From a phage: a stretch of 64,000 bases of DNA. The translations under genes and the position numbers were made by a program. The stretch lies in the sequence record PX915678.1, one strand, 5' to 3'. Numbering within the stretch: position 1 is the first letter of the stretch; each line of letters starts with the position of its first letter. Shown piece after piece: positions 14,304 to 43,723 of this stretch. The notes beneath the pieces are model-generated. The model did no database searches. It saw only the letters and a list, made by a program, of their open reading frames with translations, and had not been told where the DNA came from.

Positions 14304-14774
14304 TTAATCATGTTTCCACACCCCATCGGTATTTGACCAAAGTCGCTGATTATCTGATCCTCGCCACAGCTTTTTAGTCGGAAGATTTTTCTCATACTTC
14401 CCATCAATAATAACATCAACATATTTAAGCATTTCTAGTTGTTTAATATCTTCAAATTTATATCCTGTCCACAACCAAATGCTTTTATTTGGATAAAGAT
14501 TTTTTACTGTTTGAACAATGCAATGAACAACATCTCGGTTATCAGGATAGAGAGGGTCTCCTCCAGTTATAGTTAATCCTTCTATATAATCATTATTCAA
14601 ACATTCAATTAATTGTTCCAGCGTTTCACCAGTGAATGGAACACCGTTTCTAGCATTCCATGTTGATTTATTATAACATCCTTCGCATTTATGCAAACAA
14701 CCTGTAACGAAAAGAACGACCCTGCATCCAGGGCCATTCACAAAATCACAGGGATAAAATCTATCATAATTCAT
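14304..14774 (-). CDS. nrdG: anaerobic ribonucleotide reductase activase NrdG
   Basis: 156-aa ORF with radical-SAM Cys cluster CLHKCEGC; directly downstream of nrdD. Confidence 0.88.
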   Translation of the reverse strand: MNYDRFYPCDFVNGPGCRVVLFVTGCLHKCEGCYNKSTWNARNGVPFTGETLEQLIECLNNDYIEGLTITGGDPLYPDNRDVVHCIVQTVKNLYPNKSIWLWTGYKFEDIKQLEMLKYVDVIIDGKYEKNLPTKKLWRGSDNQRLWSNTDGVWKHD

Positions 14775-16588
14775 TGGTGTTTAACCCTATGCATGATTTC
14801 TTTATTTTTGCCGAGATTAAATCCGCGTTCATTCGGATTTCCCAAATAACCACAAGTTCTTCTTATTGTGTTCATCTTTTTAGGATCAGTTTCTCCACAA
14901 ATAGAACAAACAAACCCGTTTTCAGTAGGAGTCATTTCATGGGTACTTCCACACGTAAAACATTTATCTACTGGCATGTTAACACCAAAATAATCTAAAT
15001 GTTGTGCAGCATAATCCCATACAGCCTCAAGACCTTTTAGGTTATTTTTCATATCAGGAAGTTCAACATAAGAAATGTGACCACCTGTCGCAATGAAATG
15101 ATATGGAGCTTCGCGAGAAATCTTTTCAAACGGAGTAATATTTTCTTCTACTGAAACATGGAAACTATTAGTGTACCAGCCTTTATCAGTAACATCTTTT
15201 ACACTTCCATATTTTTCAGTATCAAGTTTACAGAAGCGATAACAAAGGTTTTCAGCAGGAGTAGAATACAAGCTAAAAGCAAAACCGGTTCTTTCAGTCC
15301 ACTGCTTAAGACGAGCATTCATTTTAGTTAAAATTTCCTGTCCAATATCACGACCGACAAGAATATTCAATTCGTGAATACCAATGTATCCTAGGGACAC
15401 TGAACTTCTACCGTTTTTAAATAACTCAATTATGTCGTCATCAGGTTTAAGACGAACCCCGAATGCACCTTCTTGGTAAAGAATAGGAGCAACAGTCGCT
15501 TTAACTCCTTTTAAGGAACTAATTCTACACATTAAAGCTTCAAAACATAAATCCATTCGCTCATTGAACAATTCGGCAAATTTCTGTTCATTGAATTGTG
15601 TTCCAATATAAGAATCTAACGCAATACGAGGAAGATTCAGTGTTACAACACCAAGATTATTACGTCCATCAAGAATTTCATTACCAGTCGAATCTTTCCA
15701 TACGCTTAAGAAACTACGGCAACCCATTGGAGAAACAGGAATAGATGAACCAGTGATAGCTTTATTGTTCTTAGCTGAAATAATATCAGGATACATTCTT
15801 TTGCTTGCACACTCTAGAGCAAGCTGCTTAATATCATAGTTCGGATCATCTTTATAAAGATTAACACCTTCTTCAACGAACATAACAAGCTTAGGGAAAA
15901 TAGGAGTTATCCCATCGCGACCAAGACCTTTAATACGATTTTTCAGAATTGCTTTCTGAATCATTCGTTCAGTCCAGTCAGTTCCCGTACCAAATGTAAT
16001 TGTTACAAAAGGCGTTTGTCCGTTTGAACTAAAAAGAGTATTTAGTTCATATTCATAAGCTTGGAATGCATCGTATACGTCTTTTTCTGTTTTAGATTGG
16101 GCATAATTCAACGCATCAGCGATTTGCCATTTTTCTGCATCCTCAATATGTTTTGCATAGGTGCGTTTAACATAAGGAGAAAGTACTTTATCTACATTCG
16201 CAAAAGTCGTTCCGCCATATTGATGGGAAGCAACCTGTGCAGTAATTTGTGCCATAATTGCAGTAGCAACGCCGATTGATTTAGGAGTTTCAATCTGTGC
16301 ATTGCCGAGCTTAAATCCGTTTTCAAGCATTCCTTTTAAATCTACTAAACAACAATTAGTAAATGGAAGAGCAGGGGAATAATCAATATCGTGGAAATGG
16401 ATAATTCCGCTTTCATGCGCTTTCATAATAAAAGACGGGACCATATTTTTGGCAATGTGTTTAGACACAATACCAGCCATAAGGTCCCGTTGAGTTGGAA
16501 AAACACGAGAATCTTTATTAGCATTCTCGTTTAAAAGGTCTTTATTAGTTTTATGAATCAATCCTTCAATTTCTTTTTCAATTGTCAT
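14771..16588 (-). CDS. nrdD: anaerobic ribonucleotide reductase NrdD (uninterrupted)
   Basis: 605-aa continuous ORF; C-terminal Zn-ribbon CFTCGS...CSICG and glycyl-radical motif RTCGYLG. Confidence 0.92.
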   Translation of the reverse strand: MTIEKEIEGLIHKTNKDLLNENANKDSRVFPTQRDLMAGIVSKHIAKNMVPSFIMKAHESGIIHFHDIDYSPALPFTNCCLVDLKGMLENGFKLGNAQIETPKSIGVATAIMAQITAQVASHQYGGTTFANVDKVLSPYVKRTYAKHIEDAEKWQIADALNYAQSKTEKDVYDAFQAYEYELNTLFSSNGQTPFVTITFGTGTDWTERMIQKAILKNRIKGLGRDGITPIFPKLVMFVEEGVNLYKDDPNYDIKQLALECASKRMYPDIISAKNNKAITGSSIPVSPMGCRSFLSVWKDSTGNEILDGRNNLGVVTLNLPRIALDSYIGTQFNEQKFAELFNERMDLCFEALMCRISSLKGVKATVAPILYQEGAFGVRLKPDDDIIELFKNGRSSVSLGYIGIHELNILVGRDIGQEILTKMNARLKQWTERTGFAFSLYSTPAENLCYRFCKLDTEKYGSVKDVTDKGWYTNSFHVSVEENITPFEKISREAPYHFIATGGHISYVELPDMKNNLKGLEAVWDYAAQHLDYFGVNMPVDKCFTCGSTHEMTPTENGFVCSICGETDPKKMNTIRRTCGYLGNPNERGFNLGKNKEIMHRVKHQ

Positions 16589-32937: not shown

Positions 32938-33475
32938 TTACTATTTCCAAAAGTTTATTATTTTTAAGGTAATTAGCCTTTTCTAGGACTTCAGAAGCAT
33001 ATTTAGAACCTGCTTTAACATTCCATCCCGAATTATAAGAGGATATTGCTTTTCTTATATCGCCCTTATGTATATTTAACCAATAAGAAAGTTCAATGTA
33101 CGCCCAGGAAGCTGAATTGGACCGTTTATTCAACATTCTTTTTATTTCAGCATCGGTCATATTATAACCAAGTTCCTTAACTCTTGCTCGCATAGTTGGC
33201 AAATAATTTTGGAACATTCCATAGGCATGATGCTTTGGTTTAGATTTTAAATTAACTCCGGCAGAGCTTTCTTGCCACAAAATAGCAGCCATTATATGAC
33301 CCAATCCGCTCTTGTGGATATTTTTGTGTGTTTTATATTTTCCATCCTTAGAAAATTGTTCCCCGAATTGATATGCGTAACGCATGTTATCGAGTTGGAC
33401 ATTACTGAAAGTATGCTCGGAGCTATGCGCCATCATTGAAATGGCCAATAGACCAGCGAGTAGTGCTTTTCTCAT
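32930..33475 (-). CDS. lytic transglycosylase-like periplasmic protein
   Basis: 181-aa ORF; signal peptide MRKALLAGLLAISMMAHS; catalytic-type E-S motif ILWQESSAG and YNSGWN. Confidence 0.55.
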   Translation of the reverse strand: MRKALLAGLLAISMMAHSSEHTFSNVQLDNMRYAYQFGEQFSKDGKYKTHKNIHKSGLGHIMAAILWQESSAGVNLKSKPKHHAYGMFQNYLPTMRARVKELGYNMTDAEIKRMLNKRSNSASWAYIELSYWLNIHKGDIRKAISSYNSGWNVKAGSKYASEVLEKANYLKNNKLLEIVND

Positions 33476-33482
33476 GCTTACC

Positions 33483-33944
33483 TCATTGAGTTTTAATTAC
33501 TGCTTTAGAAGCCTTTCCTGGTAAACGACGACTGTTGATAATTGCCATCCTGCATTGAAGCGACGGGTCTTTGAACTTCGCATTAGGTTTACAAACTGTA
33601 AATCCAAGCCAAAGATTTCCATCTGTAATTTCTAAACGTCCAGGACGGTATTCAACCCCATCAATAAAATCCTCGTCAATGTCAGGACGCGGAGGCATAC
33701 TCAGGAATTCATTAACTTCTAAAACATGGTCTTTTATTTTGTGGAATAATTCAAAAACATATGTCTCATCAATCTCCCGTTGAATTGCACGATCAAGAAG
33801 ATGCTGAGAATATTTTAGATGAAACGATGAGACCCCTGCTGCTTTTGATGCCTCACGAATCTCATTGTTAATTTGACGAAACTCCGACTCAAAGTGACGA
33901 CGAAGCTTATTTCGACGGATAAAAACTTCTGTGTTGATAGTCAT
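33483..33944 (-). CDS. regB: endoribonuclease RegB
   Basis: 153-aa ORF, size and position as T4 regB; preceded by strong early promoter. Confidence 0.75.
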   Translation of the reverse strand: MTINTEVFIRRNKLRRHFESEFRQINNEIREASKAAGVSSFHLKYSQHLLDRAIQREIDETYVFELFHKIKDHVLEVNEFLSMPPRPDIDEDFIDGVEYRPGRLEITDGNLWLGFTVCKPNAKFKDPSLQCRMAIINSRRLPGKASKAVIKTQ

Positions 33945-33969
33945 GTTATTCTCCTCTTAACTGATAGAA

Positions 33970-34003
33970 AAATTATACCACAGTCAAGAGGAAAAGTAAA
34001 CAG
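33970..34003 (-). promoter_or_regulatory. T4 early-type promoter upstream of regB
   Basis: mRNA-sense GTTTACTTTTCCTCTTGACTGTGGTATAATTTTTC: -35 GTTTAC, extended -10 TGGTATAAT. Confidence 0.65.
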
Positions 34004-34282
34004 TTATTCTTTAAATCTAATCAATTTATTCATAGACTTTGAAACTTCTGCACGGACCTCATGTAGGTTTTTAAGCTGTTCAAGACGTTGCTCATAGTAA
34101 GCAATTTCATCTTCTTCAAGACAGTCCTGTGAATCTTCTTTAAGATAACGTGCATAGTCCTGGAAAGCTTTACGGACTACTTCTTGGAAGTCATCAAGAC
34201 TTTGAATTTTCTTAGGAGCAACAGATACACGACGAGGGGCAGTATAATACTCGTAACCAAACCCTGCGCTTAATTGAGCCAT
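34004..34282 (-). CDS. hypothetical protein (vs-region)
   Basis: ORF likely starting [12 protein letters not shown] (ATG overlapping upstream stop). Confidence 0.45.
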
Positions 34283-34584
34283 TAATATTTTTCCTCTGGT
34301 TGGAACACAGCACGACAAGCCCACATACTGGCTTCTTTGAGTTTCGTTTTAGCAATAGTTAACTGATCGAGGCTTTCAGCATAATTCTTCGCGAATTCGC
34401 AGTCTTCACAATTATCTAGTGCTTCCCAGAATTCGTCATATAAAGCGTCAAAGATAAGTCCTAAACGAACTTCAGCATCTTTGATAGCATTCACTTTACC
34501 AATTTTCTCTTCAGTATGTGGCTTATAACCTTTAATATCTTCAATCATATTTGACTTCCTCACCAGTACATAAATCATATTCAA
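34282..34584 (-). CDS. hypothetical protein (vs-region)
   Basis: 100-aa ORF. Confidence 0.5.
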
Positions 34585-34762
34585 CTAAACGAATAGGTTC
34601 ATGAATGCCATATCCTTGAACAGAAATTTCTGTCGTAGGATAAATTCCATCAATATCACCCATGGTCCACGCTTCATTAAATTGCTGTTCGCCTGAATTA
34701 CTAAACCACTCGGCGAAAGCATTTAACACATCTTTAGAACCTTCAATAATTATCTTTGCCAT
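34541..34762 (-). CDS. hypothetical protein (vs-region)
   Basis: 73-aa ORF. Confidence 0.45.
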   Translation of the reverse strand: MAKIIIEGSKDVLNAFAEWFSNSGEQQFNEAWTMGDIDGIYPTTEISVQGYGIHEPIRLVEYDLCTGEEVKYD

Positions 34763-35124
34763 TACAAGCTCTCAGTAAAGGTACGAGCGATAACGTCGCG
34801 CTGCTGTTCCGGTGTCAGAGAGTTAAAGCGAACTGCATAACCGGATACACGGATGGTCAGCTGCGGATATTTTTCCGGATGCTTAACTGCATCTTCCAGA
34901 GTTTCACGACGCAGAACGTTAACGTTCAGGTGTTGACCACCTTCAATTTTGACTGTAGGCTGTGATTCAATTTCAATTTCACGGGTGTGCAAACCGTAGA
35001 AAATTTCTGGGTCTACAAAAGAGTCCTCTTTAAAGGTTTTAGAAACAATAATTCGTGCTTGAATACCATCTTCAAAATAAATAGTACCTTTATGTGTGCC
35101 TTCAAGAATTTGATATGCTTTCAT
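34762..35124 (-). CDS. autonomous glycyl-radical cofactor (GrcA/YfiD-like)
   Basis: 120-aa ORF ending ...[60 protein letters not shown], with glycyl-radical motif RVSGYAV. Confidence 0.8.
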
Positions 35125-35130
35125 ATAACC

Positions 35131-35460
35131 TCAATTAGAAAATAAATTTATCCAAGACTGTTCTTTAATTAAAAATGGCTCAGAATCATATGCCATTAAA
35201 CTTTGGGTGATTAGTCCTTTAAAAGGTCCATCAATAAATTCCATGGTAAAATATGGAATTTTATTCATTAATCTTGCATTAGGAGCAGTACACAAAACTC
35301 TGCATCCTTTGAATACACCTTTTTGTAATTTGTATTGCTTAGGATAAAATTCGCTCAAGACGTTGTTATTTGCCAAAATTTCAAAATGATTCACCAATTT
35401 ATTTTTAATAGTTTTTGGCGAAAAATAAAGATATTCGAAAAGCTGTGTGTCTGTCATCAT
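35131..35460 (-). CDS. hypothetical protein
   Basis: ORF likely starting at MMTDTQLFEYL (ATGA overlap with upstream stop). Confidence 0.45.
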   Translation of the reverse strand: MMTDTQLFEYLYFSPKTIKNKLVNHFEILANNNVLSEFYPKQYKLQKGVFKGCRVLCTAPNARLMNKIPYFTMEFIDGPFKGLITQSLMAYDSEPFLIKEQSWINLFSN

Positions 35461-35996
35461 TGCATTCCGATTACGAAAAACTGCGGACGAGTAATACCAC
35501 CAGTGCAACATTTACTATTGCAACAGTATTGTACAGTTTCAATATGAATATCGTAAATTTTATCCATATCGGGAGATTTAACCGGCTCATCGATTATATA
35601 CAAAATCCGCGAAAGCGATAAACCTCTGAACTTGCTGCCTCTATTACCAACAAAACTACGGACAGAATCAGTAAATAAGCGGAATCGAATATCGTCACTA
35701 GAATAACGAGAAAATTCTTTTTTAATGTGGCCTGCAGAAATTTTAGCGTAAGCTGAAGTATTAGAAAGAACAATAACTGTTCCACCATCATACAGCCAAT
35801 TAGCAGCAAAGTTAGTCACAGCAGTTGATTTACCGGATTGACGTCCACCATCTAGTCGAAGTGTACAATATTGTTTAAGCAAGTCTTCAAATGGTGGAAT
35901 ATAATCGTTTTTACAAATTTCTTCTACTCTAGCATCAGAATGGTGTGTAAAAGCATTCATCAGGGATAGATAAGGACCAGTTAAAAATGTTCTCAT
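35457..35996 (-). CDS. small P-loop NTPase-like protein
   Basis: ORF from MRTFLTGPYL; Walker A-like GGRQSGKST and hydrophobic-D motif VIVLSN...YIIDEP. Confidence 0.45.
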   Translation of the reverse strand: MRTFLTGPYLSLMNAFTHHSDARVEEICKNDYIPPFEDLLKQYCTLRLDGGRQSGKSTAVTNFAANWLYDGGTVIVLSNTSAYAKISAGHIKKEFSRYSSDDIRFRLFTDSVRSFVGNRGSKFRGLSLSRILYIIDEPVKSPDMDKIYDIHIETVQYCCNSKCCTGGITRPQFFVIGMQ

Positions 35997-36149
35997 TTTA
36001 TTCTCTCTAAATTTGGGCCATTCCATGGCGCATGAATTGTCCATTTCTGTATTTACCCATTACCGCACTTGGGCTCGACCTTATTACAGGTTGGCGGGAA
36101 TCCCTCATAGAATCATGAGGTCCAGCTTGTTCCCATATTTCTTATTTGC

Positions 36150-36623
36150 TTATTTGAATGATTTGACGTACTGAATAGAGCCTTTGCTATTCACGAAAGC
36201 GATTTTACCATTTTTGTTATACATGGTAGCAGTACGCTGATAACCATAAGTTTGTTTACCAGATTGATAACCAACTAATGCGAAATTATCTTCACCCATT
36301 TTATTCTGCTTAGCGCGGATACGTTCATGACCGTGTGCCATAAGAACCTTAGCGTCGCCAGTTGCAATGGATCTACGAGTTTTTTCATCTTCAACTGTAT
36401 TAACAAAATCGTCAAATGAATCAAATTTAGCATGAGATTTATTATACAGTTTTCCATCTACTGCATAATTATATCCCTGTACATCCATCTCAACTTCTGT
36501 ACCATCATCCAATACAGCAGTGATTTTTTGACCTTTTTTAAATTTCAAAAGATCAGTAAAAGATTCAGCGATAATTTGAGAATTAATAGCTGCTTCAGTG
36601 ATAAATTCTTGATATGTTTTCAT
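36150..36623 (-). CDS. internal protein (IP) family member with capsid-targeting N-terminus
   Basis: 157-aa ORF beginning MKTYQEFITEAAINS (CTS-like signature ending in E); late promoter TATAAATA 35 nt upstream. Confidence 0.65.
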   Translation of the reverse strand: MKTYQEFITEAAINSQIIAESFTDLLKFKKGQKITAVLDDGTEVEMDVQGYNYAVDGKLYNKSHAKFDSFDDFVNTVEDEKTRRSIATGDAKVLMAHGHERIRAKQNKMGEDNFALVGYQSGKQTYGYQRTATMYNKNGKIAFVNSKGSIQYVKSFK

Positions 36624-36632
36624 GTGTTTCCT

Positions 36633-37049
36633 TTAAATGTAAATAGTTTTACCGTAGTATTTATACCAGTATGGCTTCATTAAAATTTTTTCATCGAGTC
36701 GTTGTTGACTCAACTTAATAGCTGATTTGCATGGATTATAATCATTTTTCCATTCTGCTGGAATATCGCTGATGTCAGGAACTTCAGTATCTTTTATACT
36801 AAACCCACGTTTTAAGCATTCCGTTATAATGTCTGATTGACGCTTTCGCAAAAATTCTAACTTATCGTAAAAGAACGTGACATGACCAGAACCTAAAATA
36901 AACTCGGAAGATATTTTAAAATCTTTAACCCGCTTACCATTTGCAACATGTTTACGAACTATACCAAAAACACGTGGCAATTCACGGTATTCTGCGATTA
37001 AATGTTGATCAGCAAGTTCAGATACTAAAGTCAAATTAATACGAGTCAT
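36633..37049 (-). CDS. denV: endonuclease V (pyrimidine-dimer DNA glycosylase)
   Basis: From ATG at 37049 (SD GGAGGG): [29 protein letters not shown]...[14 protein letters not shown], 138 aa, recognised as T4 DenV. Confidence 0.92.
36658..36665 (-). promoter_or_regulatory. late promoter (TATAAATA) for IP gene
   Basis: mRNA-sense GGTATAAATACTACGG upstream of ORF 36150-36623. Confidence 0.55.
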
Positions 37050-37054
37050 TTTAT

Positions 37055-37106
37055 CCCTCCAAGTAACTGTGAATAATACTATCACAATTCTAGGAGAAAG
37101 TAAACA
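37055..37106 (-). promoter_or_regulatory. early-type promoter upstream of denV
   Basis: mRNA-sense AAAGTTGTTTACTTTCTCCTAGAATTGTGATAGTATTATTCAC. Confidence 0.45.
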
Positions 37107-37109
37107 ACT

Positions 37110-37640
<531 letters not shown>

Positions 37641-42216: not shown

Positions 42217-42523
42217 AAGCCTTGCGGCAACCTTGTCGGGGTTCCACCTGCTAAGGCAAGTGTTTGTACGAAACGCCGGGATTCGAACCCGGTTATTAAG
42301 CAGTTGACGCTACTCAATATTTTTTAAAAGGCCATATCTCGACCATATCCGAACGTTCCGTCAAAAACGCTACTCGGCTTACGGCAAAGATATTTCCTCG
42401 AATCGATAATTCGGTGCGCCGTTTCAGCTGTGATAGTAAAGAACCAGAACACAGTAAAACTGTGGGAGGAACTATACTCCAGGGAGCATCAATCCGACGA
42501 CTTACCGGTAGCGACCCGGTTTC
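42217..42523 (-). ncRNA. candidate stable structured RNA(s), possibly degenerate tRNA-like
   Basis: ~300 nt without ORF, GC-richer than surroundings, bounded by ORF/tRNA array and terminator; tRNA T-arm-like CCGGGTTCGAATCCCGG (42276-42292) plus several hairpins. Confidence 0.3.
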
Positions 42524-42874
42524 TTAATATTCTTTTAAAGCATCAATCTGTTCACGGCGTTTACGCCATAAATCAATTGCTTCATACGCAGATTCAGCAT
42601 TTCGAATTAGTCGGCATTTGTGTAAAGACTTGTGATTTTGATATTGTGTAGATAACGAAATTTTATCTAAAAGGTCTTTACGTTCAAAGTATTCGTAACC
42701 ATCTAAGCCAAATGAACGATTTTTGAGAAATTGCCAATGACCATATTCGTTTTCGACATAAACATAATCCGCGTGTTGATAAAGCAAATTAATTACACGT
42801 TCAGAAATAACAGTGTCATTGTGATTAAAATAGAATGTTAAATCATGAACTACTAAATAAACATTACCTTTCAT
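42524..42874 (-). CDS. hypothetical protein
   Basis: 116-aa ORF immediately 3' of tRNA-Arg. Confidence 0.5.
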   Translation of the reverse strand: MKGNVYLVVHDLTFYFNHNDTVISERVINLLYQHADYVYVENEYGHWQFLKNRSFGLDGYEYFERKDLLDKISLSTQYQNHKSLHKCRLIRNAESAYEAIDLWRKRREQIDALKEY

Positions 42875-42890
42875 ATTTTCCTCACTTAAT

Positions 42891-42966
42891 TGGTCGAGGC
42901 AGTAGGGATCGAACCTACGACCTAGGACTTAGAAGGTCCTTGCTCTTCCTTCTGAGCTATGCCTCG
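42891..42966 (-). tRNA. tRNA-Arg (anticodon UCU)
   Basis: Cloverleaf CGAGGCA/TGCCTCG acceptor, anticodon arm AGGAC-CTTCTAA-GTCCT, T-arm GTAGG-TTCGATC-CCTAC, encoded CCA. Confidence 0.85.
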
Positions 42967-42970
42967 TATT

Positions 42971-43045
42971 TGGCGGACGTGATAGGATTCGAACCTATAA
43001 CCAATCGCTTAACAGGCGATCGCTCTGCCATTGAGCTACACATCC
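42971..43045 (-). tRNA. tRNA-Asn (anticodon GUU)
   Basis: GGATGTG acceptor, anticodon arm ATCGC-CTGTTAA-GCGAT, T-arm ATAGG-TTCGAAT-CCTAT, CCA encoded. Confidence 0.75.
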
Positions 43046-43049
43046 AAAT

Positions 43050-43136
43050 TGGTGGGGAGTGATGGAGTCGAACCACCCGAGTCGCAATGACAATGAATTT
43101 ACAGTCCACACCGCTACCTCTACGGGATAACTCCCC
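43050..43136 (-). tRNA. tRNA-Tyr (anticodon GUA), long variable arm
   Basis: GGGGAGT/ACTCCCC acceptor, anticodon loop CTGTAAA, variable arm TGTCATTGCGACTCG, T-loop TTCGACT, CCA encoded; 87 nt. Confidence 0.7.
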
Positions 43137-43149
43137 TTAATTCTTAATT

Positions 43150-43224
43150 TGGTGGCCCTGGGTGGAATTGAACCACCATCTGGCGATTATGAGTCGCTTG
43201 CTTGAACCTTCCAGCTACAGGGCC
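43150..43224 (-). tRNA. tRNA with CAU anticodon (Ile2-like; Met not excluded)
   Basis: GGCCCTG/CAGGGCC acceptor, anticodon loop CTCATAA, T-arm GGTGG-TTCAATT-CCACC. Confidence 0.75.
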
Positions 43225-43225
43225 T

Positions 43226-43301
43226 TGGTGCTGATTGACGGAATCGAACCGCCGACCTTCTCATTACAAGTGAGTTGCTCTACCTACTGAGCTAAATCAG
43301 C
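43226..43301 (-). tRNA. tRNA-Thr (anticodon UGU)
   Basis: GCTGATT acceptor, D-arm GCTC-AGTAGGTA-GAGC, anticodon loop CTTGTAA, T-loop TTCGATT. Confidence 0.8.
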
Positions 43302-43306
43302 AAAAC

Positions 43307-43396
43307 TGGCGGAGGCGATAGGATTTGAACCTATGAGTCGCCGGAGCGACTGCCGGTTTTCAAGACCGGTGCATTAAACCACTCTGCCACGCCTCC
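43307..43396 (-). tRNA. tRNA-Ser (anticodon UGA), long variable arm
   Basis: GGAGGCG acceptor, anticodon arm CCGGT-CTTGAAA-ACCGG, long variable arm, T-loop TTCAAAT. Confidence 0.85.
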
Positions 43397-43398
43397 AG

Positions 43399-43472
43399 TC
43401 TCCATACAAGGATTTGAACCTTGGACCTCCTGATCCCAAATCAGGCGCTCTACCAAACTGAGCTACACGGAG
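43399..43472 (-). tRNA. tRNA-Pro (anticodon UGG); CCA not encoded
   Basis: CTCCGTG acceptor, anticodon arm CCTGA-TTTGGGA-TCAGG, T-loop TTCAAAT; abuts tRNA-Ser 5' end (dimeric precursor). Confidence 0.8.
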
Positions 43473-43482
43473 TAAATTAAAT

Positions 43483-43556
<74 letters not shown>

Positions 43557-43561
43557 AAATT

Positions 43562-43649
43562 TGGTGCGAGAAGTGGGACTCGAACCCACAAGGAAATCAT
43601 TCCGCAGCATTTTAAGTGCTGTGCCTTTACCAATTTGACCATTCTCGCG
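43562..43649 (-). tRNA. tRNA-Leu (anticodon UAA), long variable arm
   Basis: GCGAGAA/TTCTCGC acceptor, anticodon arm CAGCA-CTTAAAA-TGCTG, T-loop TTCGAGT. Confidence 0.85.
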
Positions 43650-43723
43650 CTGGGAATAAAGGACTCGAACCTTTGCATCTAGCAGTCAAAGTGCTATGCC
43701 TTACCAACTTGGCTAATTCCCAA
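43650..43723 (-). tRNA. tRNA-Gln (anticodon UUG); CCA not encoded
   Basis: TGGGAAT/ATTCCCA acceptor, anticodon arm TAGCA-CTTTGAC-TGCTA; 3' end directly abuts tRNA-Leu 5' end. Confidence 0.85.

Follow-up and report, generated by a model that had tools for sequence, protein, structure and literature searches.

A vs.6/Y06I-type glycyl-radical gene with a host-like 3' tract in a T4-type phage

The open reading frame (ORF) at 34762..35124 on the minus strand of the window, i.e., of the entire 64-kb stretch of DNA that was analysed, very probably represents the orthologue of phage T4 vs.6/Y06I, a phage copy of Escherichia coli GrcA/YfiD that acts by the rescue of pyruvate formate-lyase (PFL) and whose 3' part was replaced from Escherichia grcA. 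The source of the window is a T4-type phage (Tequatrovirus). An earlier note on this DNA had read the gene correctly, and its coordinates, strand and length of 120 amino acids were confirmed exactly, but the gene was already known. Having been in the literature since 2001, when the protein was characterised, and in RefSeq annotation, the spare-part finding adds no new biology. The only element not found in the readable literature was the sharply bounded, very young Escherichia-derived tract, together with its contrast with the divergence of the flanking sequence.

The vs.6-like gene and its surroundings

The gene, its radical motif and the neighbouring features were located as follows.

34762..35124, minus strand: vs.6/Y06I orthologue, GrcA-like autonomous glycyl-radical cofactor (ORF list, Pfam, NCBIfam, PDB, PHROGs, synteny)
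34840..34854, minus strand: RVSGY motif, residues 91–95 of the vs.6-like protein (alignments with 6OWR and PFL 1H16/2PFL)
35129..35132, minus strand: GAGG Shine-Dalgarno sequence, 4 nt upstream of the vs.6-like ATG and overlapping the vs.7-like stop codon (read from sequence)
35131..35511, minus strand: vs.7-like ORF, upstream of the vs.6-like gene (sequence)
35457..36044, minus strand: vs.8-like ORF (phrog_1488, unknown function)
34541..34762, minus strand: vs.5-like ORF (phrog_1986, 2.8e-43)
34282..34584, minus strand: ORF at the vs.4 position, two genes downstream of the vs.6-like gene (Pfam Acb2_Tad1_hairpin PF24729, 1.1e-19)

In the ORF list of the window, the vs.6-like frame started with ATG and encoded a protein of 13,853 Da (~13.9 kDa). 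The C-terminal glycyl-radical domain of PFL type that the earlier note had recognised was recovered by three matches: to Pfam Gly_radical (PF01228) over residues 60–101 (E = 2.3e-18, 67.1 bits, against a cutoff of 22.2 bits), to the NMR structure of E. coli GrcA (PDB 6OWR, 9e-42) and to chains of the PFL C-terminus (1H16, 2PFL and others, 4.4e-26). Residues 61–120 were 100% identical to residues 68–127 of E. coli GrcA, and residues 58–120 shared 49 of 63 positions (78%) with PflB 697–759. In these alignments, Gly95 is the predicted radical site and the counterpart of PFL Gly734. The protein thus combined two features of the spare-part family: it is small and stand-alone, with no catalytic barrel, and it carries the PFL-type C-terminal domain (PFL ~693–759) with RVSGY.

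Assignment to the T4 vs.6 group followed from a full-length match to phrog_1209, the vs.6 family (residues 1–120, 8.7e-63), and from the position of the gene between vs.7 and vs.5 homologues in the regB–denV block. Megablast matched the gene to 756 phage records, with Shigella phage pSs-1 as the best (99.2%), and many of these records were annotated as "autonomous glycyl radical cofactor GrcA". Nucleotide identity to hundreds of Tequatrovirus genomes was 97–99%. RefSeq names both the T4 vs.6 and the pSs-1 orthologue GrcA ("autonomous glycyl radical cofactor GrcA" for T4), and biochemical studies refer to T4 Vs.6 as Y06I. The NCBIfam equivalog model TIGR04365 scored the protein at 154.8 bits over residues 20–120, below its curated cutoff of 170, because the N-terminal half is shorter and diverged. 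In PHROGs v4, phrog_1209 is labelled "unknown function". Despite the biochemistry of 2001, deposited phage genomes often call the vs.6 homologue "hypothetical protein", "pyruvate formate-lyase" or "glycerol dehydratase radical", a misnaming attributed to this label and to the score below the TIGR04365 cutoff.

The vs.6-like gene sits within a tightly packed leftward gene block, in which the ATG of the vs.5-like ORF overlaps the vs.6-like stop codon by one base (TAATG). In a scan of positions 33400–37200, promoter-like sites (15 found, 13 ± 4 expected) and terminator-like sites (2 found, 2.2 expected) were about as frequent as chance would give. The match of the ORF at the vs.4 position to PF24729 (1.1e-19) marks it as a putative anti-CBASS cyclic-nucleotide sponge of the T4 Vs.4/Acb2 type. 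The vs.8-like ORF holds a Walker-A-like GGRQSGKST and weakly matched the terminase large subunit family phrog_2 (5.3e-6), which suggests an uncharacterised P-loop NTPase. Elsewhere in the window, 10 tRNA genes (Arg, Asn, Tyr, Met, Thr, Ser, Pro, Gly, Leu, Gln) were clustered at 42266..43722 on the minus strand; in addition to these, ARAGORN made one unusual call at 42266..42361, with an anticodon of 2 bases. Positions 43001–43142 matched tRNA arrays on ~87–113-kb plasmids from 255 E. coli genomes at ~84–90% identity and gave no chromosomal match in E. coli genomes.

The host-like tract and its distribution among phages

The gene consists of two parts.

34762..34946, minus strand: host-identical tract, gene nt 179–363 (codons 61–120 and the stop codon), structured glycyl-radical domain (E. 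coli comparison)
34947..35124, minus strand: 5' half, diverged and GrcA-homologous (alignment, composition, HMM)

The near-identity of the C-terminal half to the host protein, suggested in the earlier note, holds for the DNA as well: each of the 5426 complete E. coli genomes (5426/5426) has a grcA that is 97.8–98.4% identical to the 185 nt of the tract, and no other part of the gene matched grcA in these genomes. Over the last 60 codons, 3 of 180 nt differed from E. coli grcA, all three synonymously and only one of them within nt 179–353. In the 5' half, 63 of 123 aligned nt (51%) and 37% of the amino acids were identical; the difference in identity to grcA between the tract and the upstream aligned codons was significant (Fisher p = 7e-25). 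The 3' limit of the host-like tract coincided with the start of the vs.5-like ORF, which showed no homology to the sequence downstream of E. coli grcA.

Base composition and codon usage followed the same division. The 5' half was phage-typical (GC 0.33, GC3 0.22), while the tract had a GC content of 0.50, against 0.35 for the window, and a host-like GC3 of 0.45, against a window mean of 0.228. Neither value was reached by any of 1139 in-frame 180-nt intervals that were sampled across 51 large ORFs of the window. CTG encoded 5 of the 6 leucines in the tract, against 6% of leucines in phage ORFs. In a megablast search with the entire 64 kb, the locus of the tract was the sole E. coli chromosomal match, weaker hits to the paralogue pflB aside; the other matches in E. 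coli genomes were ~85% tRNA matches to ~100-kb plasmids. The grcA genes of Citrobacter amalonaticus and Salmonella differ from that of E. coli at 13 and 29 positions, respectively, so that the tract, with 3 differences, is nearer and its donor belonged to the Escherichia lineage.

Homology to GrcA extended into the diverged half of the protein. This half lacks the first 15 residues of GrcA and has an 8-residue insert, making the whole protein 7 residues shorter than GrcA. Residues 21–60 nevertheless scored 17.3 bits on an HMM of bacterial GrcA N-terminal halves built from 66 distinct sequences, against a maximum of 4.3 bits for 200 shuffles, and the phage N-terminal half is therefore homologous to the GrcA region that binds cleaved PFL. 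An unrelated phage N-terminus fused to a captured host fragment was rejected on the basis of this score, obtained with the N-terminal half alone.

The host-derived origin of the C-terminal half, suspected in the earlier note, was supported by the 3 differences in 180 nt beside a 5' half at 51%, by the host-like codon usage and by the closeness to E. coli. As judged from these alignments, the gene appears to be an old, full-length, diverged GrcA homologue of which the last ~175 nt were replaced by Escherichia grcA DNA, most likely via homologous recombination or gene conversion with host DNA. Nothing relevant to a mosaic or gene-conversion aspect of vs.6 was found in the open-access literature. 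If confirmed on a large sample, the tract would provide a clean natural marker for gene conversion from a host to a lytic phage.

At blastn sensitivity, GrcA-like genes were detected in 1516 phage records, covering several T4-like genera, T5-like Demerecviridae and jumbo phages. E. coli grcA matched 753 records among all phages, 639 of them at ≥95% identity; these matches always started at grcA nt 199–202 and never covered its 5' half. Near-identity to E. coli grcA DNA was limited to Tequatrovirus and Mosigvirus. In RB16, a Pseudotevenvirus that infects E. coli, the last 60 residues were 100% identical to GrcA, while 31 nt differed; the corresponding codons included 29 synonymous and 0 non-synonymous differences, a pattern that shows the protein to be under strong purifying selection, with synonymous sites evolving freely. 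The 3' halves of Klebsiella, Enterobacter and T5-like phages were compared with 82 bacterial grcA genes, a set that did not include those of K. pneumoniae and E. cloacae, and showed 70–89% DNA identity to the best match. The N-terminal half was well conserved among T4-like genera.

Fourteen Tequatrovirus and Mosigvirus sequences were compared between the two genera, and pSs-1 was compared with a phage locus from IMG/VR (L097).

Mean nucleotide differences between genera: 19.9 in the 5' half (nt 1–178), 3.2 in the tract (nt 179–353)
Mean synonymous codon differences between genera: 11.4 in the 5' half (nt 1–178), 3.0 in the tract (nt 179–353)
Nucleotide differences between pSs-1 and L097: 21 in the 5' half (nt 1–178), 0 in the tract (nt 179–353)

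For pSs-1 and L097, the difference between the 5' half and the tract was significant (Fisher p = 5e-7). Among the 14 sequences, the tract was 0–5 nt away from one modern E. coli allele, with exactly 0 differences in five phages of both genera. All but T4 had a non-E. coli G at nt 354, and this common G places the 3' junction around nt 345–354. These comparisons suggest that host-to-phage replacement occurred after the Tequatrovirus–Mosigvirus split: the tract would be either younger than that split or re-homogenised or exchanged since. A single event that later spread between both genera could explain the common junctions; so, equally, could the limits of usable homology.

Residues at two variable C-terminal positions were also compared. 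E. coli phages of three genera had the E. coli residues (LEDAVKH) and Klebsiella phages of two genera had Klebsiella-type residues (LLDAVEH). RB16 and the Klebsiella Slopekvirus are closely related in the 5' half (82% identity), despite their differing C-terminal residues. A universal rule by which the C-terminus tracks the host was rejected, as Krischvirus MIZ3 (E. coli) and Karamvirus KMB19 (Enterobacter) lack the residues of their hosts. In a metagenomic Tequatrovirus, L095 (IMG/VR 3300010279_000005), gene nt 282 is an A, the variant that separates grcA of E. coli O43 RM10042 from that of SK1144; this A may have been left by an independent conversion that drew on another host allele, or the agreement may be due to chance. 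A candidate for a second host-like tract in a phage, L120 (IMGVR_UViG_2706794630_000006; 91% identity to Yersinia grcA), was rejected because it encodes a full-length GrcA of bacterial type. This 19-kb contig, labelled as viral, carries a Yersiniaceae-like GrcA with the bacterial N-terminus MITGIQITKA and is probably bacterial or prophage-flanking DNA, not the site of a phage vs.6 homologue.

It is conceivable, although we consider it the less probable course, that in E. coli Tequatrovirus and Mosigvirus the radical domain of vs.6 has been overwritten by host grcA repeatedly or very recently, by homologous recombination during infection and after the split of the genera. This tentative scenario is based on the 175-nt tract that members of both genera carry, without a single difference from a modern E. 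coli allele, next to 178 nt that are ~20 nt apart, on the metagenomic phage with an E. coli polymorphism at nt 282 and on the Klebsiella-type residues of Klebsiella phages from two genera. If true, host DNA, although degraded by this strictly lytic phage, would serve it as a template that keeps one of its genes matched to the current host.

Proposed function and alternative readings

The biochemistry of PFL spare parts has been described for two proteins. PMC8683613 (Andorfer et al., 2021), citing Wagner et al. (2001; BBRC 285:456), credits Knappe and co-workers with the observation that O2-cleaved PFL regains its function through E. coli YfiD or T4 Y06I, with the radical on either protein installed by the PFL activase (PFL-AE); rescue, binding and activation were all in vitro observations. 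YfiD and Y06I are the only two validated PFL spare-part proteins named in PMC8683613. As described there, O2 cuts active PFL at Gly734, and the spare part binds the cleaved enzyme (cPFL), its C-terminal domain standing in for PFL ~696–759, after which catalysis proceeds with near-normal kinetics. Residues 61–127 of YfiD are structured and adopt the fold of PFL 693–759; residues 1–60 are disordered, yet required for measurable binding of cPFL and for efficient radical installation (PMC8683613). All 6 T4-like genomes of a comparative study from 2006 had retained vs.6, for which that study listed a match to Gly_radical (PMC1524935).

The spare-part function that the earlier note had proposed is supported by orthology with T4 vs.6/Y06I, a protein validated in vitro according to PMC8683613 and the work of Wagner et al. 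cited therein. By analogy, the variant of this phage, three amino acids away from Y06I, would receive its radical from PflA and rescue O2-cleaved PFL. In the proposed sequence of events, O2 would cleave active host PFL at its radical Gly734, and the 14-kDa phage protein would bind the truncated enzyme and insert its C-terminal domain, identical to GrcA 68–127. The host activase PflA would then place a glycyl radical on the phage protein, predictably at Gly95, and production of acetyl-CoA and formate would be regained. As the phage shuts off host gene expression, a copy of its own would sustain PFL-dependent fermentation during micro-oxic or anaerobic infection. Among stop-free stretches of at least 80 amino acids, no PflA-like activase was found in the window, where the only CX3CX2C motif was that of NrdG; the vs.6-like protein must therefore rely on host PflA, which, rather than NrdG, is its activase.

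The same window encodes an anaerobic ribonucleotide reductase and its activase.

14771..16588, minus strand: NrdD, anaerobic ribonucleotide reductase, 605 aa, uninterrupted (Pfam NRDD 1.4e-171, Gly_radical 1.3e-25)
14304..14774, minus strand: NrdG, radical-SAM activase of NrdD (Pfam Fer4_12 1.4e-48, Radical_SAM)

Both proteins had been named in the earlier note, and the glycyl-radical motif RTCGY reported for NrdD was found at its residues 577–581. In the window, nrdD directly overlaps nrdG (14304..16588, minus strand). A group I intron with I-TevII interrupts nrdD of the T4 reference, where the homing endonuclease gene mobC also lies between nrdD and nrdG; the window phage lacks both of these mobile elements.

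Presence of NrdD and NrdG in the window raises the question whether the vs.6-like protein could be a spare part for phage NrdD and form one module with the two, and a genome paper from 2006 indeed conjectured, on the basis of the common Pfam domain, that it acts in nucleotide metabolism (PMC1524935). However, the vs.6-like protein showed no significant similarity to the NrdD of the window (BLASTP best E = 2.6, with the radical motifs unpaired in the alignment), its C-terminus is of the PFL/GrcA type and 18,174 nt separate nrdDG from its gene. The accessory features of class III ribonucleotide reductases, i.e., similarity to the NrdD radical domain and linkage to nrdDG, were thus absent. This reading is highly improbable and, for want of significant NrdD similarity, close to refuted by the sequence. 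What stood of the earlier pairing of the GrcA-like gene with NrdD is that both are encoded; because of the BLASTP result and the distance of 18.2 kb, NrdD/NrdG and the vs.6-like gene have an anaerobic theme in common and are not one functional module. NrdD/NrdG would serve the same anaerobic lifestyle separately, on the deoxynucleotide side. Equally improbable is that the host-like tract is host DNA picked up by chance in recent times, or a product of faulty assembly, and has no function under selection. A sharp junction and a foreign composition would fit such an origin, but about 640 independent phage genomes share the mosaic at ≥95% identity, the reading frame, RVSGY and the one-base stop/start overlap with vs.5 were all intact, and strong purifying selection maintains this protein sequence also in lineages that lack the recent tract.

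Two further readings concern the target in the host. The protein might also, or instead, serve other host glycyl-radical enzymes of PFL type, for which TdcE (2-ketobutyrate formate-lyase), with its closely related C-terminus, is the candidate. In a more sensitive search, tdcE was a third E. coli locus matched by the 3' half of the gene (75.9% nt identity), and PMC8683613 speculates that spare parts may mend other glycyl-radical enzymes. The experimental support reported there is for PFL alone, however, and the C-terminus of the phage protein is identical to that of GrcA, whose validated partner is PflB, which makes service to TdcE unlikely. Still less probable is manipulation instead of repair, in which the phage-specific N-terminal half would compete with GrcA, titrate PflA or dock on intact PFL and thereby redirect pyruvate flux. 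Consistent with such a role, this half is only 37% identical to GrcA, with the missing first 15 residues and the insert of 8, yet conserved among T4-like genera, and in YfiD the N-terminal half governs cPFL binding and activation efficiency (PMC8683613). On the other hand, T4 Y06I restored cleaved PFL in vitro, as PMC8683613 relates from Wagner et al. (2001), and the catalytic domain was kept identical to that of the host, which fits substitution rather than interference. With repair of PFL as the preferred reading, T4-type phages would carry a repair part for a host fermentation enzyme besides anaerobic nucleotide synthesis, a combination that fits the oxygen-fluctuating gut.

Comparison with known systems

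A very close relative among known proteins is T4 Vs.6/Y06I (NP_049730.1), likewise of 120 aa and encoded between vs.7 and vs.5, with which 117 of 120 residues were identical. The host-identical 3' tract and its junction were the same in both genes, which differed at 12 nt and, from the window to T4, by the replacements T47A, S54P and R73H. At residue 73, the window protein has the E. coli-type Arg, whereas T4 Vs.6 has His. The T4 block has the order regB–vs.3–vs.4–vs.5–vs.6–vs.7–vs.8–denV, and the vs.6-like gene is syntenic with it in the window as well as in pSs-1.

Like E. coli GrcA/YfiD, the phage protein is a small stand-alone glycyl-radical protein. Outside RVSGY, the identity that the earlier note had made the touchstone of this kinship was split, complete over residues 61–120 and low (37%) in the N-terminal half, where homology is nonetheless detectable. 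Unlike E. coli grcA, which adjoins ung and eamB, the vs.6-like gene lies in a lytic phage gene block. With PflB 693–759 (2PFL, 1H16), the segment that the spare part replaces, the protein has in common the RVSGY radical loop and the C-terminal helix. Unlike PflB, it has neither the catalytic barrel nor the active-site cysteines and cannot act alone.

The two-part architecture with a highly conserved C-terminal domain recurs in other phages, namely in RB16 (Pseudotevenvirus), Jiaodavirus, Slopekvirus, Karamvirus and Krischvirus, as well as in T5-like Demerecviridae and the jumbo phages RaK2 and SE_PL. The GrcA-like genes of these other groups (RB16, Klebsiella/Enterobacter, T5-like and jumbo phages) differ from vs.6 of the window in having no recent Escherichia-derived tract, since the 82 bacterial grcA genes sampled match their 3' halves at 70–89% DNA identity at best.
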